Under the pieces are notes generated by a model. It worked only from the letters and a program-made list of their open reading frames with translations, had not been told where the DNA came from and ran no database searches. Source: a virus. Taken from it: DNA of 36,581 bases. The DNA is taken from positions 1-36,581 of the IMG/VR virus record IMGVR_UViG_3300045988_108325. One strand, written 5' to 3'. The position numbers were made by a program, and so were the translations under genes. Below, one piece after another: positions 4,514-24,748 of this stretch (position 1 is the stretch's first letter; each line of letters starts with the position of its first letter).

Positions 4514-4542
4514 TTGACAATATATAACGTACATGATATAAT
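4514..4542 (+). promoter_or_regulatory. early promoter P2: TTGACA, 17 bp, TGaTATAAT
   Basis: Perfect -35 and -10 with TG extension. The spacer matches the other four copies. Confidence 0.85.
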
Positions 4543-5151: not shown

Positions 5152-5180
5152 TTGACAACATATAACAAGCGTGATATAAT
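5152..5180 (+). promoter_or_regulatory. early promoter P3: TTGACA, 17 bp, TGaTATAAT
   Basis: Same architecture as the other copies. The spacer is more diverged (acatataacaagcgtga). Confidence 0.8.
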
Positions 5181-6578: not shown

Positions 6579-6607
6579 TTGACAACGTATAACATACGTG
6601 ATATATT
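6579..6607 (+). promoter_or_regulatory. early promoter P4: TTGACA, 17 bp, TGaTATATT
   Basis: Same architecture as the other copies, with the AAAACTAT upstream flank. Confidence 0.75.
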
Positions 6608-6633
6608 ATATGTGTAGAAAGGAGGAAACGAAA

Positions 6634-6858
6634 ATGACAAGAATTGAAATTGAACGAGAGCGCCAAAAAGAAAGAAAACGTAAAAAGAACATCATGCGAA
6701 AAGAGTTCTTGAAACAATACTTTAAATTTTTAGGTTTTGTAGCGTTTATCTTCATTACAGGCGTATTTTTTATGTGGTGCTCTTGTGGTGCTCAAGAACA
6801 ACAATTCAATGAGGTTGAAGCTTGGAAAAATAACACATACGTATATCCACAAGGTTAA
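6634..6858 (+). CDS. small membrane protein with one TM segment, about 74 aa
   Basis: The listed 6598 start lies inside the promoter -10. ATG 6634 has RBS GAAAGGAGG. The TM segment is FLGFVAFIFITGVFFMW. Confidence 0.5.
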   Translation: MTRIEIERERQKERKRKKNIMRKEFLKQYFKFLGFVAFIFITGVFFMWCSCGAQEQQFNEVEAWKNNTYVYPQG

Positions 6859-9315: not shown

Positions 9316-9344
9316 TTGACAACATATAACGTACATGATATACT
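9316..9344 (+). promoter_or_regulatory. early/middle promoter P5: TTGACA, 17 bp, TGaTATACT
   Basis: Its spacer is identical to P2 apart from one base. It drives the replication/accessory operon. Confidence 0.8.
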
Positions 9345-11330: not shown

Positions 11331-11683
11331 GCGTATTTGAACAAATTTTATTTGAAAAATTGATGTTTGGCGTAGAGAACGCTGTTTCTAGTAAGAGTCT
11401 AGCATACGATTTTAGAACTAGCAGGCGACGGATTGCAAAGACAATTCATGATATGTGTCGTAAAGGAGTTCCAATCGTTGCAACATGAAAAGGACGATAT
11501 AAGGGCTATTTTCTAGCGAGAAATCGTCAAGAAATGGCAATGTATATCAAACCTTTAGAAGCGGAATACAGAGAAGTTATGAAGCGAATTCGCAAGTTGA
11601 AATCATTGCGAGAGGCTGAATATCAAGCGATTTTGAACGAGAAAAAAGAACAAATTTTGAAAGGGATTAATAATCATGAATAG
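11318..11683 (+). pseudogene. 121-codon reading frame interrupted by one in-frame TGA (11486-11488): a possible nonsense-mutated or mis-sequenced gene of unknown function
   Basis: GTG start with GGAGGT upstream. After the TGA, 65 further codons stay open in the same frame until the TAG at 11681, and the downstream segment has no RBS of its own. Confidence 0.45.
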
Positions 11684-15886: not shown

Positions 15887-16043
15887 GAGCGTTGGTAATC
15901 GGATTTTGTTTAAGTGGTATACTAGCAAGCGCCAAAATTTTAGGATTTGAGTTTTCGTGGCGTTTTGTATCTCTACCATTTTTGATAACATTATCACTCA
16001 ATTTAGGGCTTATAATTTATTATGTTTATGACCATGAAGAATA
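15871..16043 (+). CDS. small membrane protein, 57 aa, paralog of 16059..16331
   Basis: The segment ILASAKILGFEFSWRFVSLPFLITLSL aligns with LLMSAKLLGFELAWKIVLMPLFIMIGI of the next gene. Confidence 0.45.
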
Positions 16044-16058
16044 AAAGGAGAAAATAAG

Positions 16059-17473: not shown

Positions 17474-17959
17474 ATGGAAACGCTAGAGGAACTAAAAAGG
17501 AAACGTGCGAAATTAGATAAACAAATTGAAGTGTTAGAACGTACAGGATATCCGATTGAAAGGTTTCAAAGATATTATTTATTGACAGCGTTCGGCGGTG
17601 TAACCGAACAAGTGTATGATGATGTGAACTTACACATAAATAGATTTGGTCAAGGCAATGTATTCCTTACTAAAGAAGAGGCGGAATTGGAAGCAAAAAG
17701 ACGGAATTTGGTGCATAGATTCAAAATGTTCAGAGATAAATGTAACGATGGATGGAAGCCTGATTTTGGAGAAAAATGCAACGCTCAAAAGTATTTAATA
17801 GGTTACAGTTGGGATACTAATGATGAAAAATATAAATTGAAATCATTAGAGCTAGGAGCGAGCAATTTATTTAATCAGTTTGGTTATTTTAAAAATCGTT
17901 CAGATTGTGATGAAGCAATCGAATTGTTTGGTTGTGAAATCAAAAAATTATTCTTGTAA
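17474..17959 (+). CDS. paralog family member C (161 aa)
   Basis: RBS GGGGGT 6 nt upstream. Carries GNVFLTKEEAELEAKRR, FRDKCNDGWKPDF and FGYFKNRSDCDEAIELFG. Confidence 0.65.
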   Translation: METLEELKRKRAKLDKQIEVLERTGYPIERFQRYYLLTAFGGVTEQVYDDVNLHINRFGQGNVFLTKEEAELEAKRRNLVHRFKMFRDKCNDGWKPDFGEKCNAQKYLIGYSWDTNDEKYKLKSLELGASNLFNQFGYFKNRSDCDEAIELFGCEIKKLFL

Positions 17960-18037
17960 AGTTTTTTTATACTATAATGACAATCACAAAAAAAGCGTGT
18001 AAAAAGTTTTTTTAAAAGCAAAAATGAGGTATAGTAA

Positions 18038-18075
18038 GAATGTAAACGTGATGTGTTTGCATTCTTCTTTTTTAT
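18038..18075 (+). terminator. rho-independent terminator ending the early/middle transcription unit
   Basis: 10-bp stem GAATGTAAAC / GTTTGCATTC with one G-U pair, 7-nt loop, then TTCTTCTTTTTTAT. Confidence 0.8.
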
Positions 18076-18105
18076 ATAGGCAGACCGCAAATCTGCCTTA
18101 CTCCT

Positions 18106-18179
18106 CACTTACTTGGAGAGCGAGCAGGTTTTATCGTATGATTTAATTGTCGCTAGAGGTTCGATTCCTCTATAAGTGA
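18106..18179 (+). other. tRNA-like segment with a canonical T-arm hairpin AGAGG-TTCGATT-CCTCT and a 6/7 complementary acceptor-like pairing (CACTTAC / ATAAGTG); not a canonical tRNA
   Basis: The GGTTCGATTCC T-loop consensus is at 18159-18169. The 5'/3' acceptor-like strands are 42 nt apart. I could not fold canonical D or anticodon arms, and there is no CCA. Confidence 0.3.
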
Positions 18180-18240
18180 TAGCCTTACGAGGCGACCTTC
18201 CAACCTATTTGTCATTTTCGTTGGACTCCTAAACATTTTT

Positions 18241-18273
18241 CCTCAGTGGTATGCTCCACCACTGAGGTTTTTT
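18241..18273 (+). terminator. rho-independent terminator
   Basis: 9-bp stem CCTCAGTGG / CCACTGAGG, 9-nt loop, then TTTTTT. Confidence 0.8.
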
Positions 18274-18363
18274 AAAAAGTAAATACATAATCCGATATGT
18301 TTCAATGCGCAGAAACAGAAAAACAAAATAAGCACTTGTTACGGTTCGAGGTGCATACATATT

Positions 18364-18392
18364 GAGGCGCAATAGCGTCTCTTTTTTATTTT
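18364..18392 (+). terminator. terminator-like hairpin 13 nt upstream of the late-operon RBS, a candidate leader terminator or attenuator
   Basis: 7-bp stem GAGGCGC / GCGTCTC with one G-U pair, loop AATA, then TTTTTTATTTT. RBS AAGGAGG follows immediately. Confidence 0.55.
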
Positions 18393-18404
18393 AAGGAGGA
18401 AAAT

Positions 18405-19707
18405 ATGGAGATTGAAAGGCTCAAGATAAACGATTTACTGGAATATAAATATAACGCAAAAGAACATCCTGAATGGCAGATTGAACAGATTGTGAATAGT
18501 ATTAAACAATTTGGATTCAATGACCCTATTGCCGTTGATGAAAACAATACAATCATTGAGGGGCACGGCAGATTATACGCCTTGCAAGAAATGGGCGAAA
18601 CAGAGGTTGACTGTATCAGGTTATCTCATTTAGACGAGGAACAAAAACGGGCGTACATTCTAGCTCACAATAAGTTAACCATGAATACGGATTTTGACTT
18701 GGACTTGTTACAGTTAGAGCTAGATAACATCATTGATATTGATATGAGTGATTTCGGATTCACGATTGATGAAGAGGTAGAAAGCCTAAAAGATAAAATC
18801 AAAGAAAACGACTATGCAGGCTCAATTATTGATGATTTTATTATCATGCCTCAAACTATTTTCGATACAAGGCAAGGTCATTGGCAAGACCGTAAAAAGC
18901 AATGGATTGAGTTAGGAATAAAATCAGAACTAGGAAGAGCGGAAGACCTCACATTCGCCAAACAGTTACAAAGTAGCGGACTAGGTGGAACGAGTATTTT
19001 CGACCCAACATTATGTGAAATCTGCTATAAATGGTTTACCCCACACGAAAACGCAAAAATTATTGACCCGTTTGCAGGTGGGGGGGGTAAGAGGTATTGT
19101 TGCTGAAAGGCTAGGATTCACATATACAGGTATTGACTTACGTAAGGAACAGATTGACGCAAACTATACCAACGCTAAAGAAATTGGAACAGATACCGAT
19201 AAAATCAATTGGATATGTGATAATTCATTAAACGTTGATGAACACATTGAAGATGAAAGTGCAGATTTATTATTTACTTGTCCGCCTTATTTCGATTTAG
19301 AAGTTTATAGCGATGATGAGAACGATATTTCAAACATGACCTATGAAGACTTTTGCGAGGCGTATACAACTATCCTTAAAAAGTTCGCAAACAAACTAAA
19401 GGATAATAGATTCGCAATAGTAGTGATTAGTGATGTACGAGATAAGAGAGGCTATTATAGAGATTTGACAGGTATCACGAAACAAGCGTTCAAAGAAATT
19501 GGTGCGCTATTCTACAACGACATCATTCTAGTAAACGTTACAGGCTCAGGAGCATTGAGAGCTAGAAAACAAATGAATAGTGGGCGTAAAGTTATCAGAA
19601 CTCATCAAAATGTATTAGTGTTCTTTAAAGGAAATCCTAAAGAAATCAAAAGTGAATTCGGTCCAATAGCATTACTAGATAAGCTAGAGGATACGGAAAA
19701 AGAATGA
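18405..19707 (+). CDS. ParB-like nuclease domain fused to a DNA (N6/N4) methyltransferase, split into two ORFs by a +1 frameshift at a G8 homopolymer (19079-19086)
   Basis: ParB N-terminal domain (FNDPIAVDENNTIIEGHGRLYAL). Removing one G gives DPFAGGGVRGIVAERLGFTYTGIDL (methyltransferase motif I). Motif IV TCPPY is downstream. RBS AAGGAGG. Confidence 0.8.
19079..19086 (+). repeat. G8 homopolymer tract at the frameshift point of the ParB-methyltransferase gene
   Basis: Read directly from the sequence. G7 would restore the frame. Confidence 0.9.
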
Positions 19708-19739: not shown

Positions 19740-20162
19740 TTGAGCAACGGCAGAGAAAACTTGAAGCCGTTTACCGTGGAAACAGCGAGGGAGAACGGAC
19801 GAAAAGGGGGATATGCTAGTGCAAAGGCAAAAAGGAAGAAAGCGAACCTTAAACAAGCAATGCAAACTCTATTAGCAATGGATGTATCGAGCGAGAAATC
19901 AAAAGAACAACTTGAGGCTTTAGGTGTTGAGGCTACTAATGAAATGTTACTCGCCTTCGCCACTTTCCAACAAGCAGTTAAAGGAAATCAACGAGCGGTG
20001 GAGAACGTCATCAAGCTATCAACAACCGAGAAAGATAAGCATGATATAGCAGAACAGAAAGAACGTATCAAGGCTCTTAAACTGAAAAATAAACAGATTG
20101 AAGAATTGGGAGGTGCGGAAGATGAAGAAATCATCATCATTGCCGACATTCCAAGAGAGTAA
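19740..20162 (+). CDS. terS: terminase small subunit
   Basis: TTG start with RBS AAAGGAGGTGG. The N-terminus ENLKPFTVETARENGRKGGYASAKAKR is typical of Sfi11-like small terminases. It sits directly upstream of TerL. Confidence 0.75.
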   Translation: MSNGRENLKPFTVETARENGRKGGYASAKAKRKKANLKQAMQTLLAMDVSSEKSKEQLEALGVEATNEMLLAFATFQQAVKGNQRAVENVIKLSTTEKDKHDIAEQKERIKALKLKNKQIEELGGAEDEEIIIIADIPRE

Positions 20163-21465
20163 GAACATCAATCCAACCTTTTACGATGTGTGGACTAGTA
20201 AGAAGCCCTATAACGTTTTAAAAGGTGGGCGTAACTCGTTCAAATCGTCCGTTATTTCGCTTTTGTTAGTCTTTAAGATGATAGAGGCTATCAGGGCAGG
20301 AAAACGTGTTGAAATCGTCGTTATTCGTAAGGTAGCAAACACTATTGCCGATTCTGTTTACAACAAAATCATTTGGGCGATTAATAAATTTGGTTTAGGT
20401 AAGAAATTTGATTATCGTAAAAGCCCTTATAAAATTATTCATCAAAAAACAAAGAGCGCATTTCACTTTTACGGTCAGGACGACTTCCAAAAACTGAAAT
20501 CAAACGATGTCGGCTCAATAATAGCGGTGTGGTATGAAGAAGCAAGTGAGTTTAAGAACGCTGAAGAATTCGACCAGACTAACATTACATTTATGCGACA
20601 AAAGCACCCTGAATATGAACAAGTACAGTTCTATTGGACTTACAACCCGCCTAGAAATCCATATAATTGGATAAACGCTTGGACGGATGAAGTAAGGAAA
20701 GACGAAAACTATTTTGTGCATTCAAGTAGTTACTTAGATGATTCACTAGGATTCGTAACTAAACAGATTCTTGATGAGATTGAGCGTATCAAACAGAATG
20801 ATTATGACTATTACAGATATTTGTATCTAGGCGAACCCGTTGGGCTTGGAACTAACGTCTATAACATCGAATTGATGAAGAAAGTCAAAAAGATTCCTGA
20901 TGATGAACGAGTGCTATACATGTACTTTGCAACGGATACAGGACATCAACAGAGTGCGACCGCTAGTTTATGCTTAACTTTAACGCATAAGTTAGGGGAA
21001 GACCTGCCGAGGGTTTATCTGATTGATACTTACTACTATTCGCCAAAAGGGAAAGTGAGAAAGAAAGCTCCTAGTCAGTTATCAAAGGATATGTATGACT
21101 TTGAAACGGTAATGCAGAACGGCTACAAGCGAACGGATGTTCGTAACAGAACAATAGATAGTGCCGAGGGTGCTATACGAAACCAGTATTTTGAAGATTA
21201 CGGAATCAATTTACATCCCGTTGCGAAAAAGAAAAAGGTCGTTATGACTGAATATGTTCAAACGTTATTGGCTCAAGGTAGATTCTATTATCTTGATACG
21301 GAAAACAATAACAAGTATTTCATCGAGGAACATAAGACTTATGCTTGGGAGGAAAAAAGCATAATGAATGACGACCCTCAAGTCGTAAAAGAAAACGACC
21401 ATACGTGTGACGCTTTTCAATATTTCGTGATGGATAACTTGAGAGATTTAAGGCTAGCATACTAA
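20122..21465 (+). CDS. terL: terminase large subunit
   Basis: 447 aa. ATPase and nuclease arrangement between TerS and the portal. RBS GGAGGT 8 nt before ATG 20122. Overlaps the terS end. Confidence 0.85.
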   Translation: MKKSSSLPTFQESKNINPTFYDVWTSKKPYNVLKGGRNSFKSSVISLLLVFKMIEAIRAGKRVEIVVIRKVANTIADSVYNKIIWAINKFGLGKKFDYRKSPYKIIHQKTKSAFHFYGQDDFQKLKSNDVGSIIAVWYEEASEFKNAEEFDQTNITFMRQKHPEYEQVQFYWTYNPPRNPYNWINAWTDEVRKDENYFVHSSSYLDDSLGFVTKQILDEIERIKQNDYDYYRYLYLGEPVGLGTNVYNIELMKKVKKIPDDERVLYMYFATDTGHQQSATASLCLTLTHKLGEDLPRVYLIDTYYYSPKGKVRKKAPSQLSKDMYDFETVMQNGYKRTDVRNRTIDSAEGAIRNQYFEDYGINLHPVAKKKKVVMTEYVQTLLAQGRFYYLDTENNNKYFIEEHKTYAWEEKSIMNDDPQVVKENDHTCDAFQYFVMDNLRDLRLAY

Positions 21466-24098: not shown

Positions 24099-24187
24099 AA
24101 ATACAGCCGTTGATTTTAGGCGTAAAATGAAATCAAAAATCACTTATGAGAGGCAACCTCGTATAAAAGCGTAGAGGAGGAAAAAAC

Positions 24188-24748
24188 ATGACTTTCAAAG
24201 AATATTTGAAGGAAAAAGGCTTGGATGAAGCGACAATCGAGGCAATCACAAGCGGAATGGCGGAACACAAACTATATATTGCTAGTGAAGAAAAACTTGA
24301 CGAACGTTATCAGAAAGCCAAAGCAAAAAACAAACAGTATGAGGAAGAGTTAAAGGCTTCAAATGCTCTTGTTGAAGATTTAAAAGCAAAGAGTGTTAAC
24401 AATGAGGATGTTCAAAAGAAATTATCTGAATACGAGAAAACTATTCAGGATTTGACGGCTCAAAGAGAGACGGACGCTTTGAATAATTTCATTGATTTAA
24501 ACCTTACTCAATCGAATGCTAAAAACTTAAAAGCGGTTAAAGCACTGCTAAACATGGATACTATCAAAAAGAACGACAAAGGCGAGTTTGAGGGGTTGAA
24601 TGAACAGATTGAGGAATTAAAACAAAGTGCGGACTATTTATTTAACGGTACCGAGTCAGCAAAAACGCCTCAATTTGCGCAGGGAAATCCAAACAAAGAG
24701 ACGCCAAGTGAAGATAGTGCCTTGTTTGCAGGATTTGACAAAATCTAA
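24188..24748 (+). CDS. scaffolding protein
   Basis: 186 aa, helical and charged, directly upstream of the major capsid gene. RBS GAGGAGG. Confidence 0.7.
   Translation: MTFKEYLKEKGLDEATIEAITSGMAEHKLYIASEEKLDERYQKAKAKNKQYEEELKASNALVEDLKAKSVNNEDVQKKLSEYEKTIQDLTAQRETDALNNFIDLNLTQSNAKNLKAVKALLNMDTIKKNDKGEFEGLNEQIEELKQSADYLFNGTESAKTPQFAQGNPNKETPSEDSALFAGFDKI

Follow-up and report, generated by a model that had tools for sequence, protein, structure and literature searches.

A tRNA-derived, non-decoding element in a candidate late-operon leader of a Streptococcus-type siphophage

In phage lambda (pR'-tR', with 6S RNA and Q) and in phage HK022 (put), one or more promoter-proximal terminators between the late promoter and the late genes give rise to a short leader RNA unless the RNA polymerase is modified. 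The c4 RNAs of phages P1 and P7 and the CI RNA of P4 are operon-leader RNAs that are processed by a transfer RNA (tRNA) enzyme and pair with the regions around ribosome-binding sites (RBSs). In the siphophages of Gram-positive bacteria, temperate as well as virulent, late control is described as simple activation at the DNA level by RinA, ArpU and Ltr proteins. Activators of the Ltr type bind direct repeats that lie immediately 5' of the late promoter; the ltr-terS intergenic region contains regulator-bound direct repeats, a terminator and the late promoter (Quiles-Puchalt et al. 2013, PMC3753634). RNase P processes phage regulatory RNAs such as c4 of P1/P7 (PMC4919922). In murine gammaherpesvirus 68 (MHV68), the tRNA-microRNA-encoded RNAs (TMERs) consist of a tRNA-like element and two hairpins, and they are cut by tRNase Z (PMC4838037). 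Here, we compare these systems with a locus in a viral genome, IMG/VR record IMGVR_UViG_3300045988_108325, which was analyzed at its full length of 36,581 nucleotides (nt) and is referred to as the window. The locus is a gap of 445 bases at positions 17960-18404, and at its core is a tRNA-like element of 74 nt (18106-18179). Features are on the plus strand unless stated otherwise.

We propose that the gap is an activator-dependent late promoter followed by a 5' leader of ~360 nt, which belongs to the late operon of a Streptococcus-type siphophage, and that the core of this leader is an exapted, non-decoding phage tRNA acting as a processing handle. We would give this reading as a whole a probability of about one half. 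The position of the unit is seen most clearly in related loci (labeled L with a number). Related sequences are found in about 20 viral and metagenome contigs, in most cases between a gene for a late-transcription regulator and the first packaging gene. The upstream gene belongs to the RinA family in L010 (TIGR01636) and to the ArpU family in phage PH15 (TIGR01637), and it is sigma-70 region-4-like in L085; the downstream gene is ParB or terS. The window fits this slot on the downstream side. In L117, L084 and L085, the RBS of terS lies directly 3' of a terminator-like hairpin that corresponds to T2 of the window (18241-18273). Because T2 adjoins the terS RBS in these three loci, and because the slot lies between the late regulator and the first late gene, the unit is most probably a late promoter with its 5' leader and not an independent gene. 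An earlier note on this DNA, made by a model from the letters alone, had taken the region for a discrete small-RNA gene bounded by two terminators, an interpretation that is not supported in this form, the same unit being placed as a late-operon leader in relatives. A small RNA could be formed from the leader by termination or processing.

The acceptor stem of the tRNA-like element has 6 bp (18106-18111 with 18173-18178). A linker of 6 nt, TTGGAG, occupies the place of the D-arm, and it is followed by a long arm whose 5-bp stem AGCGA/TCGCT (18119-18123 with 18150-18154) encloses 26 nt and forms a long irregular hairpin. The T-arm AGAGG-TTCGATT-CCTCT (18155-18171) is canonical. It had already been noticed that the flanks CACTTAC (18106-18112) and ATAAGTG (18172-18178) pair like an acceptor stem, and indeed they do, with 6 bp and a C.A mismatch at tRNA position 7:66. 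A73 is at 18179 and is followed by T at 18180 (A73 then TAGCC), so that no CCA is encoded. When 18106-18179 is folded alone, the minimum free energy (MFE) structure is exactly the three-way junction of acceptor, long arm and T-arm, and the fold z-score of the region is -3.5 to -4.0. The motif GGTTCRANNCC occurs once in the whole window, both strands included, against 0.19 expected, and one or more matches were obtained in 17 of 100 shuffles.

Like a tRNA gene, the element has an acceptor and a T-arm with TTCRANN and G53-C61; a D-arm and an anticodon stem with a 7-nt anticodon loop are absent from it. The standard tools gave negative results for the window, with 0 tRNA and 0 transfer-messenger RNA (tmRNA) from ARAGORN, no match to Rfam RF00005 up to E = 10 in 17900-18450, and no Rfam 15 family (C4, tmRNA, YrlA, GOLLD and ROOL included) at its gathering score in the gap. 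The best sub-threshold match there, LhrC, is not significant (23.9 bits vs a gathering score of 110, E 0.27). The sister copies in L012 and L010, which belong to subfamily B (see below), exceed the gathering score of the Rfam tRNA model (29), with 37.7 and 32.1 bits; they carry an insertion of 64-66 nt in the anticodon loop, and ARAGORN calls L010 3788-3862 "tRNA-???". The window copy is more derived than the B copies. The ancestry of the element is that of a tRNA and, as far as sequence can tell, it is a tRNA-derived, non-decoding element and not a working tRNA gene.

A normal tRNA-Glu(UUC) lies within a cluster of five tRNAs in the metagenome contig ERZ1033931.90 (L112, 6110-6181). Its unusual acceptor (CGCTCG../..CGAGTG, C1-G72) and 3' trailer (ATTGG) are also found in the subfamily-B element, and it is possibly a relative of the ancestor of the element. 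In the window, a second ACTCCT motif lies directly 5' of the acceptor strand (18100-18105) and can pair with GGAG(AG) at 18115-18120. The resulting hairpin would hide the 5' acceptor strand and is preferred by the full-length MFE; a conformational switch at 18100-18118 between the tRNA-like fold and alternative folds is possible.

Related loci were fetched via the neighbouring ParB gene and the 161-aa gene upstream. With nhmmer, one close homologue, L013 (18086-18403, 82%), and two distant ones, L010 and L012, were found. A pattern across the T-arm and the 3' acceptor strand was used to retrieve further copies, and it yielded about 10 viral and 12 metagenome copies of subfamily B. Four leader subfamilies can be distinguished. 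Subfamily A consists of the window and L013. Subfamily B (L010-like) has a tRNA-like element with a D-arm and an insertion of 64-72 nt, followed by one to three more tRNA-like modules. Subfamily C (L084 and L085) has a minimal leader that keeps T2 and is devoid of the tRNA-like element and of the hairpins P0, P5 and P6 described below. Subfamily D (L001-L004, L007-L009, L011 and L028) has no tRNA-like element at this place and carries a T-arm-like terminator hairpin further down. Common to all four are a -10-like element (A)TGATATA(G/T)T, a pyrimidine tract, the motif TCAT-N6-14-ACTCCTAA and the G+C-rich hairpin T2; a further hairpin before the RBS, T3, is found in A, B and D only. A search for more copies of subfamily A with the pattern CGCTAGNGGTTCRANTCCNCTATA returned only the contig of L013 and a second module of L010, and an exact-protein look-up returned only 100%-identical copies of the phage of the window.

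The B-type leaders are 700-900 nt long, with two to four tRNA-like modules in tandem. Modules are located at 3788-3862 in L010, at ~1290-1390 and 1539-1555 in L012, at 7206 and 7305 in L083, and at 460, 725 and 824 in L099. After most modules from the second onward comes ..ATCC(T/G)T(T/A)AAGGAGAAACCATATAAATACA. The element of the window resembles the second modules of subfamily B in the loop of its long arm and in its T-arm (nhmmer E = 0.023). A coding role for the B-type insertion was considered and rejected, as the frames differ between B1 and B2 by our own reading of the sequences.

Within the element, the window and L013 are 95% identical, compared with ~78% in the flanking coding DNA and 32-78% in the other parts of the gap. 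Across 12 distinct sequences, all pairs of the acceptor (6/6), the long arm (5/5) and the T-stem (5/5) are canonical, and pairs changed on both sides number two in the acceptor, three in the long arm and three in the T-stem. For the half of the unit from the T-arm to T2, a model-based alignment has 96% of its cells paired and seven pairs changed on both sides, a result reached by 0 of 500 shuffles. RNAalifold, applied to 14 subfamily-B sequences, independently gave a cloverleaf with acceptor, D-arm, a 5-bp "anticodon" stem and T-arm. With the covariance model R1, the window obtains 88.5 bits (E ~7e-17), partly by construction, the window being among the 16 sequences used to build the model. 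Chance is excluded because of the conservation and covariation in relatives. On this point the earlier note was right: the RNA of the gap is non-coding, structured and conserved, its T-arm and acceptor stem are genuinely of the tRNA type, and the comparison it had proposed with related phages brought out homologous regions with compensatory base changes.

A decaying pseudo-tRNA, that is, a functionless relic of a phage tRNA gene left in the late leader, would share the clear tRNA ancestry of the element. It would also account for the loss of the D-arm and the anticodon loop in the window, for the absence of the element from subfamily C and for the sole T-arm-like hairpin kept in subfamily D. 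Decay is at odds, however, with an element that is the best-conserved stretch of its locus, whose stems pair through compensatory changes and which recurs two to four times in B-type leaders. The T-loop consensus T-T-C-R-A is intact in every module found, although the module scan itself required this motif and left only loop positions 59-60 and the stems free to vary. We regard a functionless relic as very unlikely. Its pattern of conservation is that of an RNA structure derived from a tRNA and maintained by selection, as opposed to a pseudogene in decay or a DNA core kept for its sequence.

The earlier note had also considered a remnant or mimic of a tRNA-derived phage attachment (attP) core. 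What speaks for this is the T-arm with the 3' acceptor only, the portion of a tRNA gene of which attP sites usually carry a copy. But the 5' acceptor strand is present too, the stems covary between phages, and the unit lies between the late regulator and the packaging genes. Moreover, exact matching of the pattern GGTTCRANNCCNNTANNAGTGATNGNC, which covers 27 nt of T-arm and 3' end and is matched by the window, against one genome for each of 185,579 species gave five unrelated matches, none of them in Streptococcus, so that similarity to a host tRNA 3' half was not borne out. No integrase was found among the window open reading frames (ORFs) searched, a set that did not include every small ORF. 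With both acceptor strands, covarying stems, a late-leader position and no matching tRNA 3' half among these genomes, the attachment core was rejected, and we give it next to no credence.

Upstream of the proposed leader, three direct repeats AAAAAG(C/T) with a spacing of 11-12 nt were read from the sequence at 17986-18019. The same three repeats are found in L013, 5' of its -10-like element. By analogy with the Ltr-type activators, they are a candidate binding site for a late activator. They are followed at 18025-18035 by the -10-like element TGAGGTATAGT, which has no good -35 and is a candidate late promoter with a predicted start at ~18042. Its conserved form (A)TGATATA(G/T)T precedes the leader at the same place in all four subfamilies. 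The TGATATAnT form is common to the late element and five early promoters of the window, but the late element is without their TTGACA -35. The five early promoters are near-identical (TTGACAA-NN-TATAAC-N5-TGATATAnT; 2734-2762, 4514-4542, 5152-5180, 6579-6607 and 9316-9344), and each precedes an early gene block; the early promoter cassette, with its conserved 5' untranslated region (UTR) and RBS, occurs in nine viral contigs.

A terminator scan of 17500-18900 found three sites, against 0.5 +/- 0.8 in shuffles. T1 (18036-18075) is a hairpin of 12-14 bp followed by CTTCTTTTTT, T2 is a conserved hairpin with 10 G+C-rich bp followed by TTTTTT, and T3 (18364-18387) is the 7-bp hairpin GAGGCGC/AATA/GCGTCTC followed by TTTTTT, ~6 nt 5' of the RBS. 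All three have the G+C-rich hairpin and the immediately following T-run of an intrinsic terminator, and termination at them is predicted. T1 may end early transcription or may be a stem-loop near the 5' end of the leader; its hairpin is strong in the window only, and the relatives keep the pyrimidine tract with weaker hairpins. In T2, nine pairs are 96.5% paired and three are changed on both sides. T3 and the RBS are 93% identical to L013, and a hairpin with a T-run stands at the place of T3 in subfamilies B and D. T1, T2, the T-arm and a hairpin at 18079-18097 were all found where the earlier note had placed them. Its two bracketing terminator-like hairpins are real, and what it missed is the third, T3, together with a structured module at 18277-18363.

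The loop of T2 reads ATGCTCC in one and GGAGCAT in the other of L013 and the window, and is thus inverted in L013. The loop of the window (18251-18257) is the exact reverse complement of L013 3250-3256 and sits on an identical stem; between the two phages, it was turned around inside its palindrome. In subfamily D, the polarity of the T2 hairpin is wholly opposite (GAGGGCG...CGCCCTC).

The hairpin at 18079-18097, P0, has a 6-bp stem and a 7-nt loop (GGCAGA/CCGCAAA/TCTGCC). Its counterpart in L013 is GGGGAG/CTCGCAAAA/CTCCCC, which differs from it on both sides of four of the six pairs and retains the loop core CGCAAA. At the place of P0, subfamily B has a hairpin with a compensatory change of its own, ACGGGG/CCCCGT vs ACGAGG/CCTCGT in L110. 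The module missed earlier, module 3 (18277-18363), could be compared in two sequences and is 77% identical to L013. It contains the hairpins GTTTC/AATGCGCA/GAAAC (18299-18316) and GCAC...GTGC (18332-18354), and the L013 counterpart of the first is TATCAC/GATGCGCA/GTGATA; between these two sequences, the stem is changed on both sides and the loop is kept.

These hairpins also suit a different view of the leader, namely a cis-acting device for processive antitermination, comparable to HK022 put RNA or to nut/boxB sites for a phage protein, in which the tRNA shape is a binding surface and the polymerase passes T2 and T3. In every subfamily, a polymerase leaving the late promoter would meet two to three terminator-like hairpins ahead of the first late ORF, and P0 and 18299-18316 combine conserved loops with covarying stems. 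In addition, reporter data indicate that the ltr-terS terminator is passed by Ltr-dependent transcription only (PMC3753634). On the other side, the minimal leaders L084 and L085 have T2 but none of P0, P5, P6 and the tRNA-like element. No protein came up as a candidate antiterminator, and, by inspection only, no alternative antiterminator fold that pairs with T2 was seen to be shared across subfamilies. An antitermination device of this kind is, in our judgment, a possibility of low probability.

Three nucleotides past the discriminator position of the tRNA-like element begins the hairpin P5 (GCCT/TACG/AGGC, 18182-18193). Three of its pairs are conserved in 16 distinct sequences, with 98% of cells paired, and its loop varies in length and sequence. 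P6 (18199-18225) has the stem TCCAAC/GTTGGA and a 15-nt loop, CTATTTGTCATTTTC, which includes the "anti-start-codon" TCAT. Pairing in its helix reaches 91%, one of the pairs having changed on both sides, and all of subfamilies A to D retain the loop motif GT(C/T)AT. Between P6 and T2 lies the single-stranded CUCCUAAACAUUUUU (18226-18240), with the anti-Shine-Dalgarno motif ACTCCTAA, which is conserved in four subfamilies. Together, the GTCAT of the P6 loop and the single-stranded ACTCCTAA are the reverse complement of a consensus RBS and start codon. Across 92 sources, the gene strand carries the motif TCAT-N6-14-ACTCC at 16 places, and 15 of these lie in late leaders. This anti-RBS motif is kept in all four subfamilies, including the leaders that have no tRNA-like element.

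In the window, 18209-18222 is a perfect 14-nt complement of the RBS and start of the early ORF 6634 (6627-6640). The duplex has an energy of -27.8 kcal/mol, the best among 56 gene starts; ranks 1, 3 and 6 of the 56 belong to genes that come first after three of the five consensus early promoters. The hypergeometric probability of these ranks, p ~0.007, is our own estimate and was computed after seeing the data. The controls are favourable to a moderate degree only: a 14-mer match was also reached by 1.7-2.6% of control queries, and the matches in L013 (11 nt) and L093 (12 nt) were reached by 13% and 7% of shuffles. The D-type phages have the same early promoter cassette with an RBS that is not complementary to their own anti-RBS motif, and the B-type matches fall on unrelated genes. 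Antisense targeting of early genes is a weak lead for the window and not a finding. Repression in cis of the first late gene by the anti-RBS motif was also considered and was rejected, as the duplex energies are unremarkable, with background fractions of 0.1-0.6.

Such targeting would be central if the unit were, after all, a free-standing small-RNA gene that has its own promoter, ends at T2 and represses early genes by antisense pairing, the tRNA-like part serving for stabilization or processing. The perfect complement to ORF 6634 and the high ranks behind the early promoters agree with this, as does the series of hairpins, C/U-rich single strand and terminator, which is a typical architecture of Gram-positive small RNAs; a -10-like element (18030-18035) and T2 are both present. 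Against it stand the control matches to the 14-mer, the targets, which are not orthologous across phages, and the relatives, in which the unit is plainly the 5' UTR of terS or ParB. We think that an independent small-RNA gene is rather improbable.

When read on the minus strand, the anti-RBS motif becomes an RBS with an ATG (AGGAG-N9-ATG), which could open a small protein gene (ORF 18153-18215 or 18153-18236), and this RBS-like sequence with its ATG is conserved in all subfamilies. But the resulting products, of 20-27 aa in the window, ~35 aa in subfamily B and 6 aa in subfamily D, are unrelated in sequence, the changes in the stems preserve pairs and not codons, the genes of the phage are all on the plus strand, and no promoter-like site on the minus strand points into the ORF. 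The peptide was rejected, neither its length nor its sequence being conserved, and we consider it extremely unlikely.

Several points weigh against our proposal of a late leader with an exapted tRNA as processing handle. No late regulator gene was recognized in the window. Subfamily A comprises two sequences only, which are 95% identical within the element, and the covariation of the acceptor and the long arm rests on a structure-guided comparison with subfamily B and second modules. The MFE of the full-length fold prefers an alternative pairing around the 5' acceptor strand. The leaders of subfamilies C and D are without the tRNA-like element, apart from the T-arm-like terminator hairpin of D, and the element is accessory for that reason. 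As for the anti-RBS motif, it has no special complementarity to the RBS of the first late gene, and no orthologous target is consistent across the subfamilies. Finally, C1 and position -1 fall short of what RNase P prefers.

How such a leader might work can be outlined as follows. Transcription would start near 18042, from the TATAGT element behind the three direct repeats, and the polymerase would meet up to three terminators, T1, T2 and T3, before the first late ORF. Many transcripts would presumably end at T2, as an RNA of ~230 nt, or at T3, and the expression of late genes would need read-through or antitermination, as at lambda pR'-tR'. The "top half" of a tRNA is the part that is recognized by RNase P, RNase Z and the CCA enzyme. 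In the descent of the element from a tRNA, the acceptor/T-arm top half with its T-loop consensus was preserved by strong selection, the D-arm was lost and the anticodon arm turned into a long irregular hairpin. A processing handle would be the most economical role for the element because the retained top half is what these enzymes recognize. With C1-G72, A73, U74 and no CCA, the minihelix may serve as a handle for tRNA-maturation enzymes of the host, RNase P cutting 5' of 18106 and RNase Z after 18179. These cuts would release a stable tRNA-like RNA of 74 nt and a downstream piece whose new 5' end would be protected by P5. The latter may be either a small RNA of ~95 nt (P5, P6, CUCC and T2) or the late mRNA, and the anti-RBS motif (CAU...CUCCU), formed by P6 and the single strand, would let the small RNA pair with ribosome-binding sites.

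A bolder version, to which we assign only a small chance, is that the late leader is a phage counterpart of the TMERs, in which the exapted tRNA recruits RNase P and RNase Z and frees a trans-acting anti-RBS RNA that shuts off early genes (6634, 2797 and 5218). If so, the onset of late transcription would bring mass production of the anti-RBS RNA through termination at T2, and the tRNA-like modules, of which relatives have as many as four in a row, would punctuate a processed regulatory leader. Passage of T1 to T3 would then imply that the Ltr-type "activators" act together with an antitermination step.

The genome is that of a siphophage with 36% G+C, looks complete and has all its genes on the plus strand. 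In order, it encodes the tail end and endolysin, Erf, a replication initiator, RusA and SSB, and after the gap a ParB_N/N6_N4 methylase, the terminase and portal/head/tail proteins. The large terminase is 64% identical to those of the Streptococcus phages Javan554 and PH15, and an identical phage is present in at least seven metagenome contigs according to the exact-protein look-up. The related phages apparently come from human-associated samples. The gap is the largest internal gap of the window, and no ORF of more than 74 aa overlaps it on either strand, in line with the earlier statement that no credible ORF is present. It had also been stated that all other gaps are under 150 bp, which is nearly so; gaps of 345 nt (11331-11675) and 172 nt (15887-16058) exist, both of which hold ORFs of 40-59 aa. 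The final 1458 nt contain no complete ORF of 40 aa or more, and an ORF running off the end would escape the listing. According to the ORF list and Pfam, the RBS AAGGAGG and the ATG of the first late gene (ParB_N/N6_N4 DNA methylase) are at 18392-18407, and the terminase genes follow 3' of it at 19740-21465.

The methylase gene itself is found in two overlapping frames (18405-19106 and 18985-19707), with the junction near a G-run (..DPFAGGGG / ..QVGGVRG..). Gene calls in three independent assemblies with 100% identity to the window give the same split, into 233 aa and ~210 aa, and for this reason it is not a one-off sequencing error. It could be a frameshifted gene, a slippage-prone gene or two genes. 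The sole Rfam match at gathering score in the window is a GP20-b motif at 24105-24173 (41 bits vs 36.2), just 5' of the ORF 24188-24748 in the position of the head scaffold.

A DNA similarity search with the gap, 24 kb of the window and a B-type leader against 50,697 GenBank phage records gave no match. To judge by sequence similarity, the leader family is absent from deposited phages, or too diverged in them, the exception being a weak relative in the Streptococcus gordonii phage PH15, with a T-arm-like hairpin and TTGTTATTCAT (R1 E = 0.65). The arpU-terS gap of PH15 (L129, NC_010945; 2419-3022, 604 nt) contains three GCGGTAA repeats and the T-arm-like hairpin CTGG-TTCGATT-CCAG followed by TTGTTATTCAT. 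The final ~140 nt of this gap (TGGTATAAT ... terminator-like hairpin) have 70-84% identity with about 35 "Streptococcus satellite phage Javan" records. These sequence matches suggest that satellites copy part of the late leader or promoter of their helper. The leader slot is partly common to streptococcal satellite phages, which may matter for the exploitation of helpers.

What the family adds to the described picture of DNA-level activation is that a late transcript can begin with a long, selected and modular RNA made up of exapted tRNAs, an anti-RBS motif and terminators. This points to a layer of control at the RNA level, by attenuation or antitermination, by processing with tRNA enzymes, or possibly by antisense shut-off of early genes. 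The element is also a clean example of a tRNA gene turned into a non-decoding structural module, which explains why tRNA finders and Rfam miss or half-detect such elements in phage genomes. A full-text literature search found no paper on tRNA-like elements in Streptococcus phages or in connection with ArpU, and a broader search found one unrelated review. tRNA-like modules and terminator-rich late leaders are each known; their combination in this slot appears to be undescribed.

Compared with tRNA genes (RF00005), the element has the same acceptor stacked on a 5-bp T-stem, T54-T55-C56-R57-A58, G53-C61 and A73, and like many tRNA genes of Firmicutes it has no encoded CCA. Unlike them, the window copy is without a D-arm, a 7-nt anticodon loop and an anticodon and is mismatched at 7:66, and the B copies carry their insertion of 64-66 nt at the place of the anticodon loop. 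The tRNA-like domain of tmRNA likewise combines an acceptor with a T-arm, dispenses with a D-stem and has a long helix where a tRNA has its anticodon arm, whereas G3.U70, CCA, a tag reading frame and pseudoknots are all missing from the window; the Rfam tmRNA model gives only a 17-nt T-arm match, in L010. The Ltr-controlled late promoters (RinA, ArpU and LtrA-C) present the same slot, with the ltr gene, repeats, a terminator, the terS promoter and packaging genes, but only activation at the DNA level has been described for them, and the word "tRNA" occurs 0 times in that report (PMC3753634). In contrast to lambda pR'-tR' and HK022 put, the window has several terminators and a tRNA-like module, and no Q-like protein or put-like fold was identified in it. 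The c4 and CI RNAs of P1/P7 and P4 are also phage-encoded and are matured by RNase P (PMC4919922), but they control immunity in phages of Gram-negative bacteria and have no sequence or Rfam similarity to the window. The MHV68 TMERs, which we compare here together with MALAT1 mascRNA as tRNA-like handles for RNase P and tRNase Z, are non-aminoacylated tRNA-like elements with two hairpins, ~200-250 nt in length (PMC4838037); the unit of the window measures ~200 nt from T1 to T2 and has a tRNA-like element, P5, P6 and a terminator. They differ in being eukaryotic, driven by RNA polymerase III or II and feeding Dicer, whereas the unit of the window lies in a bacterial mRNA leader. As modeled, a handle of the TMER/mascRNA type would fit in its architecture only (minihelix, A73, U74, no CCA, and P5 3 nt downstream). 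The closest architectural precedents for this leader are the MHV68 TMERs and the phage regulatory RNAs matured by RNase P.

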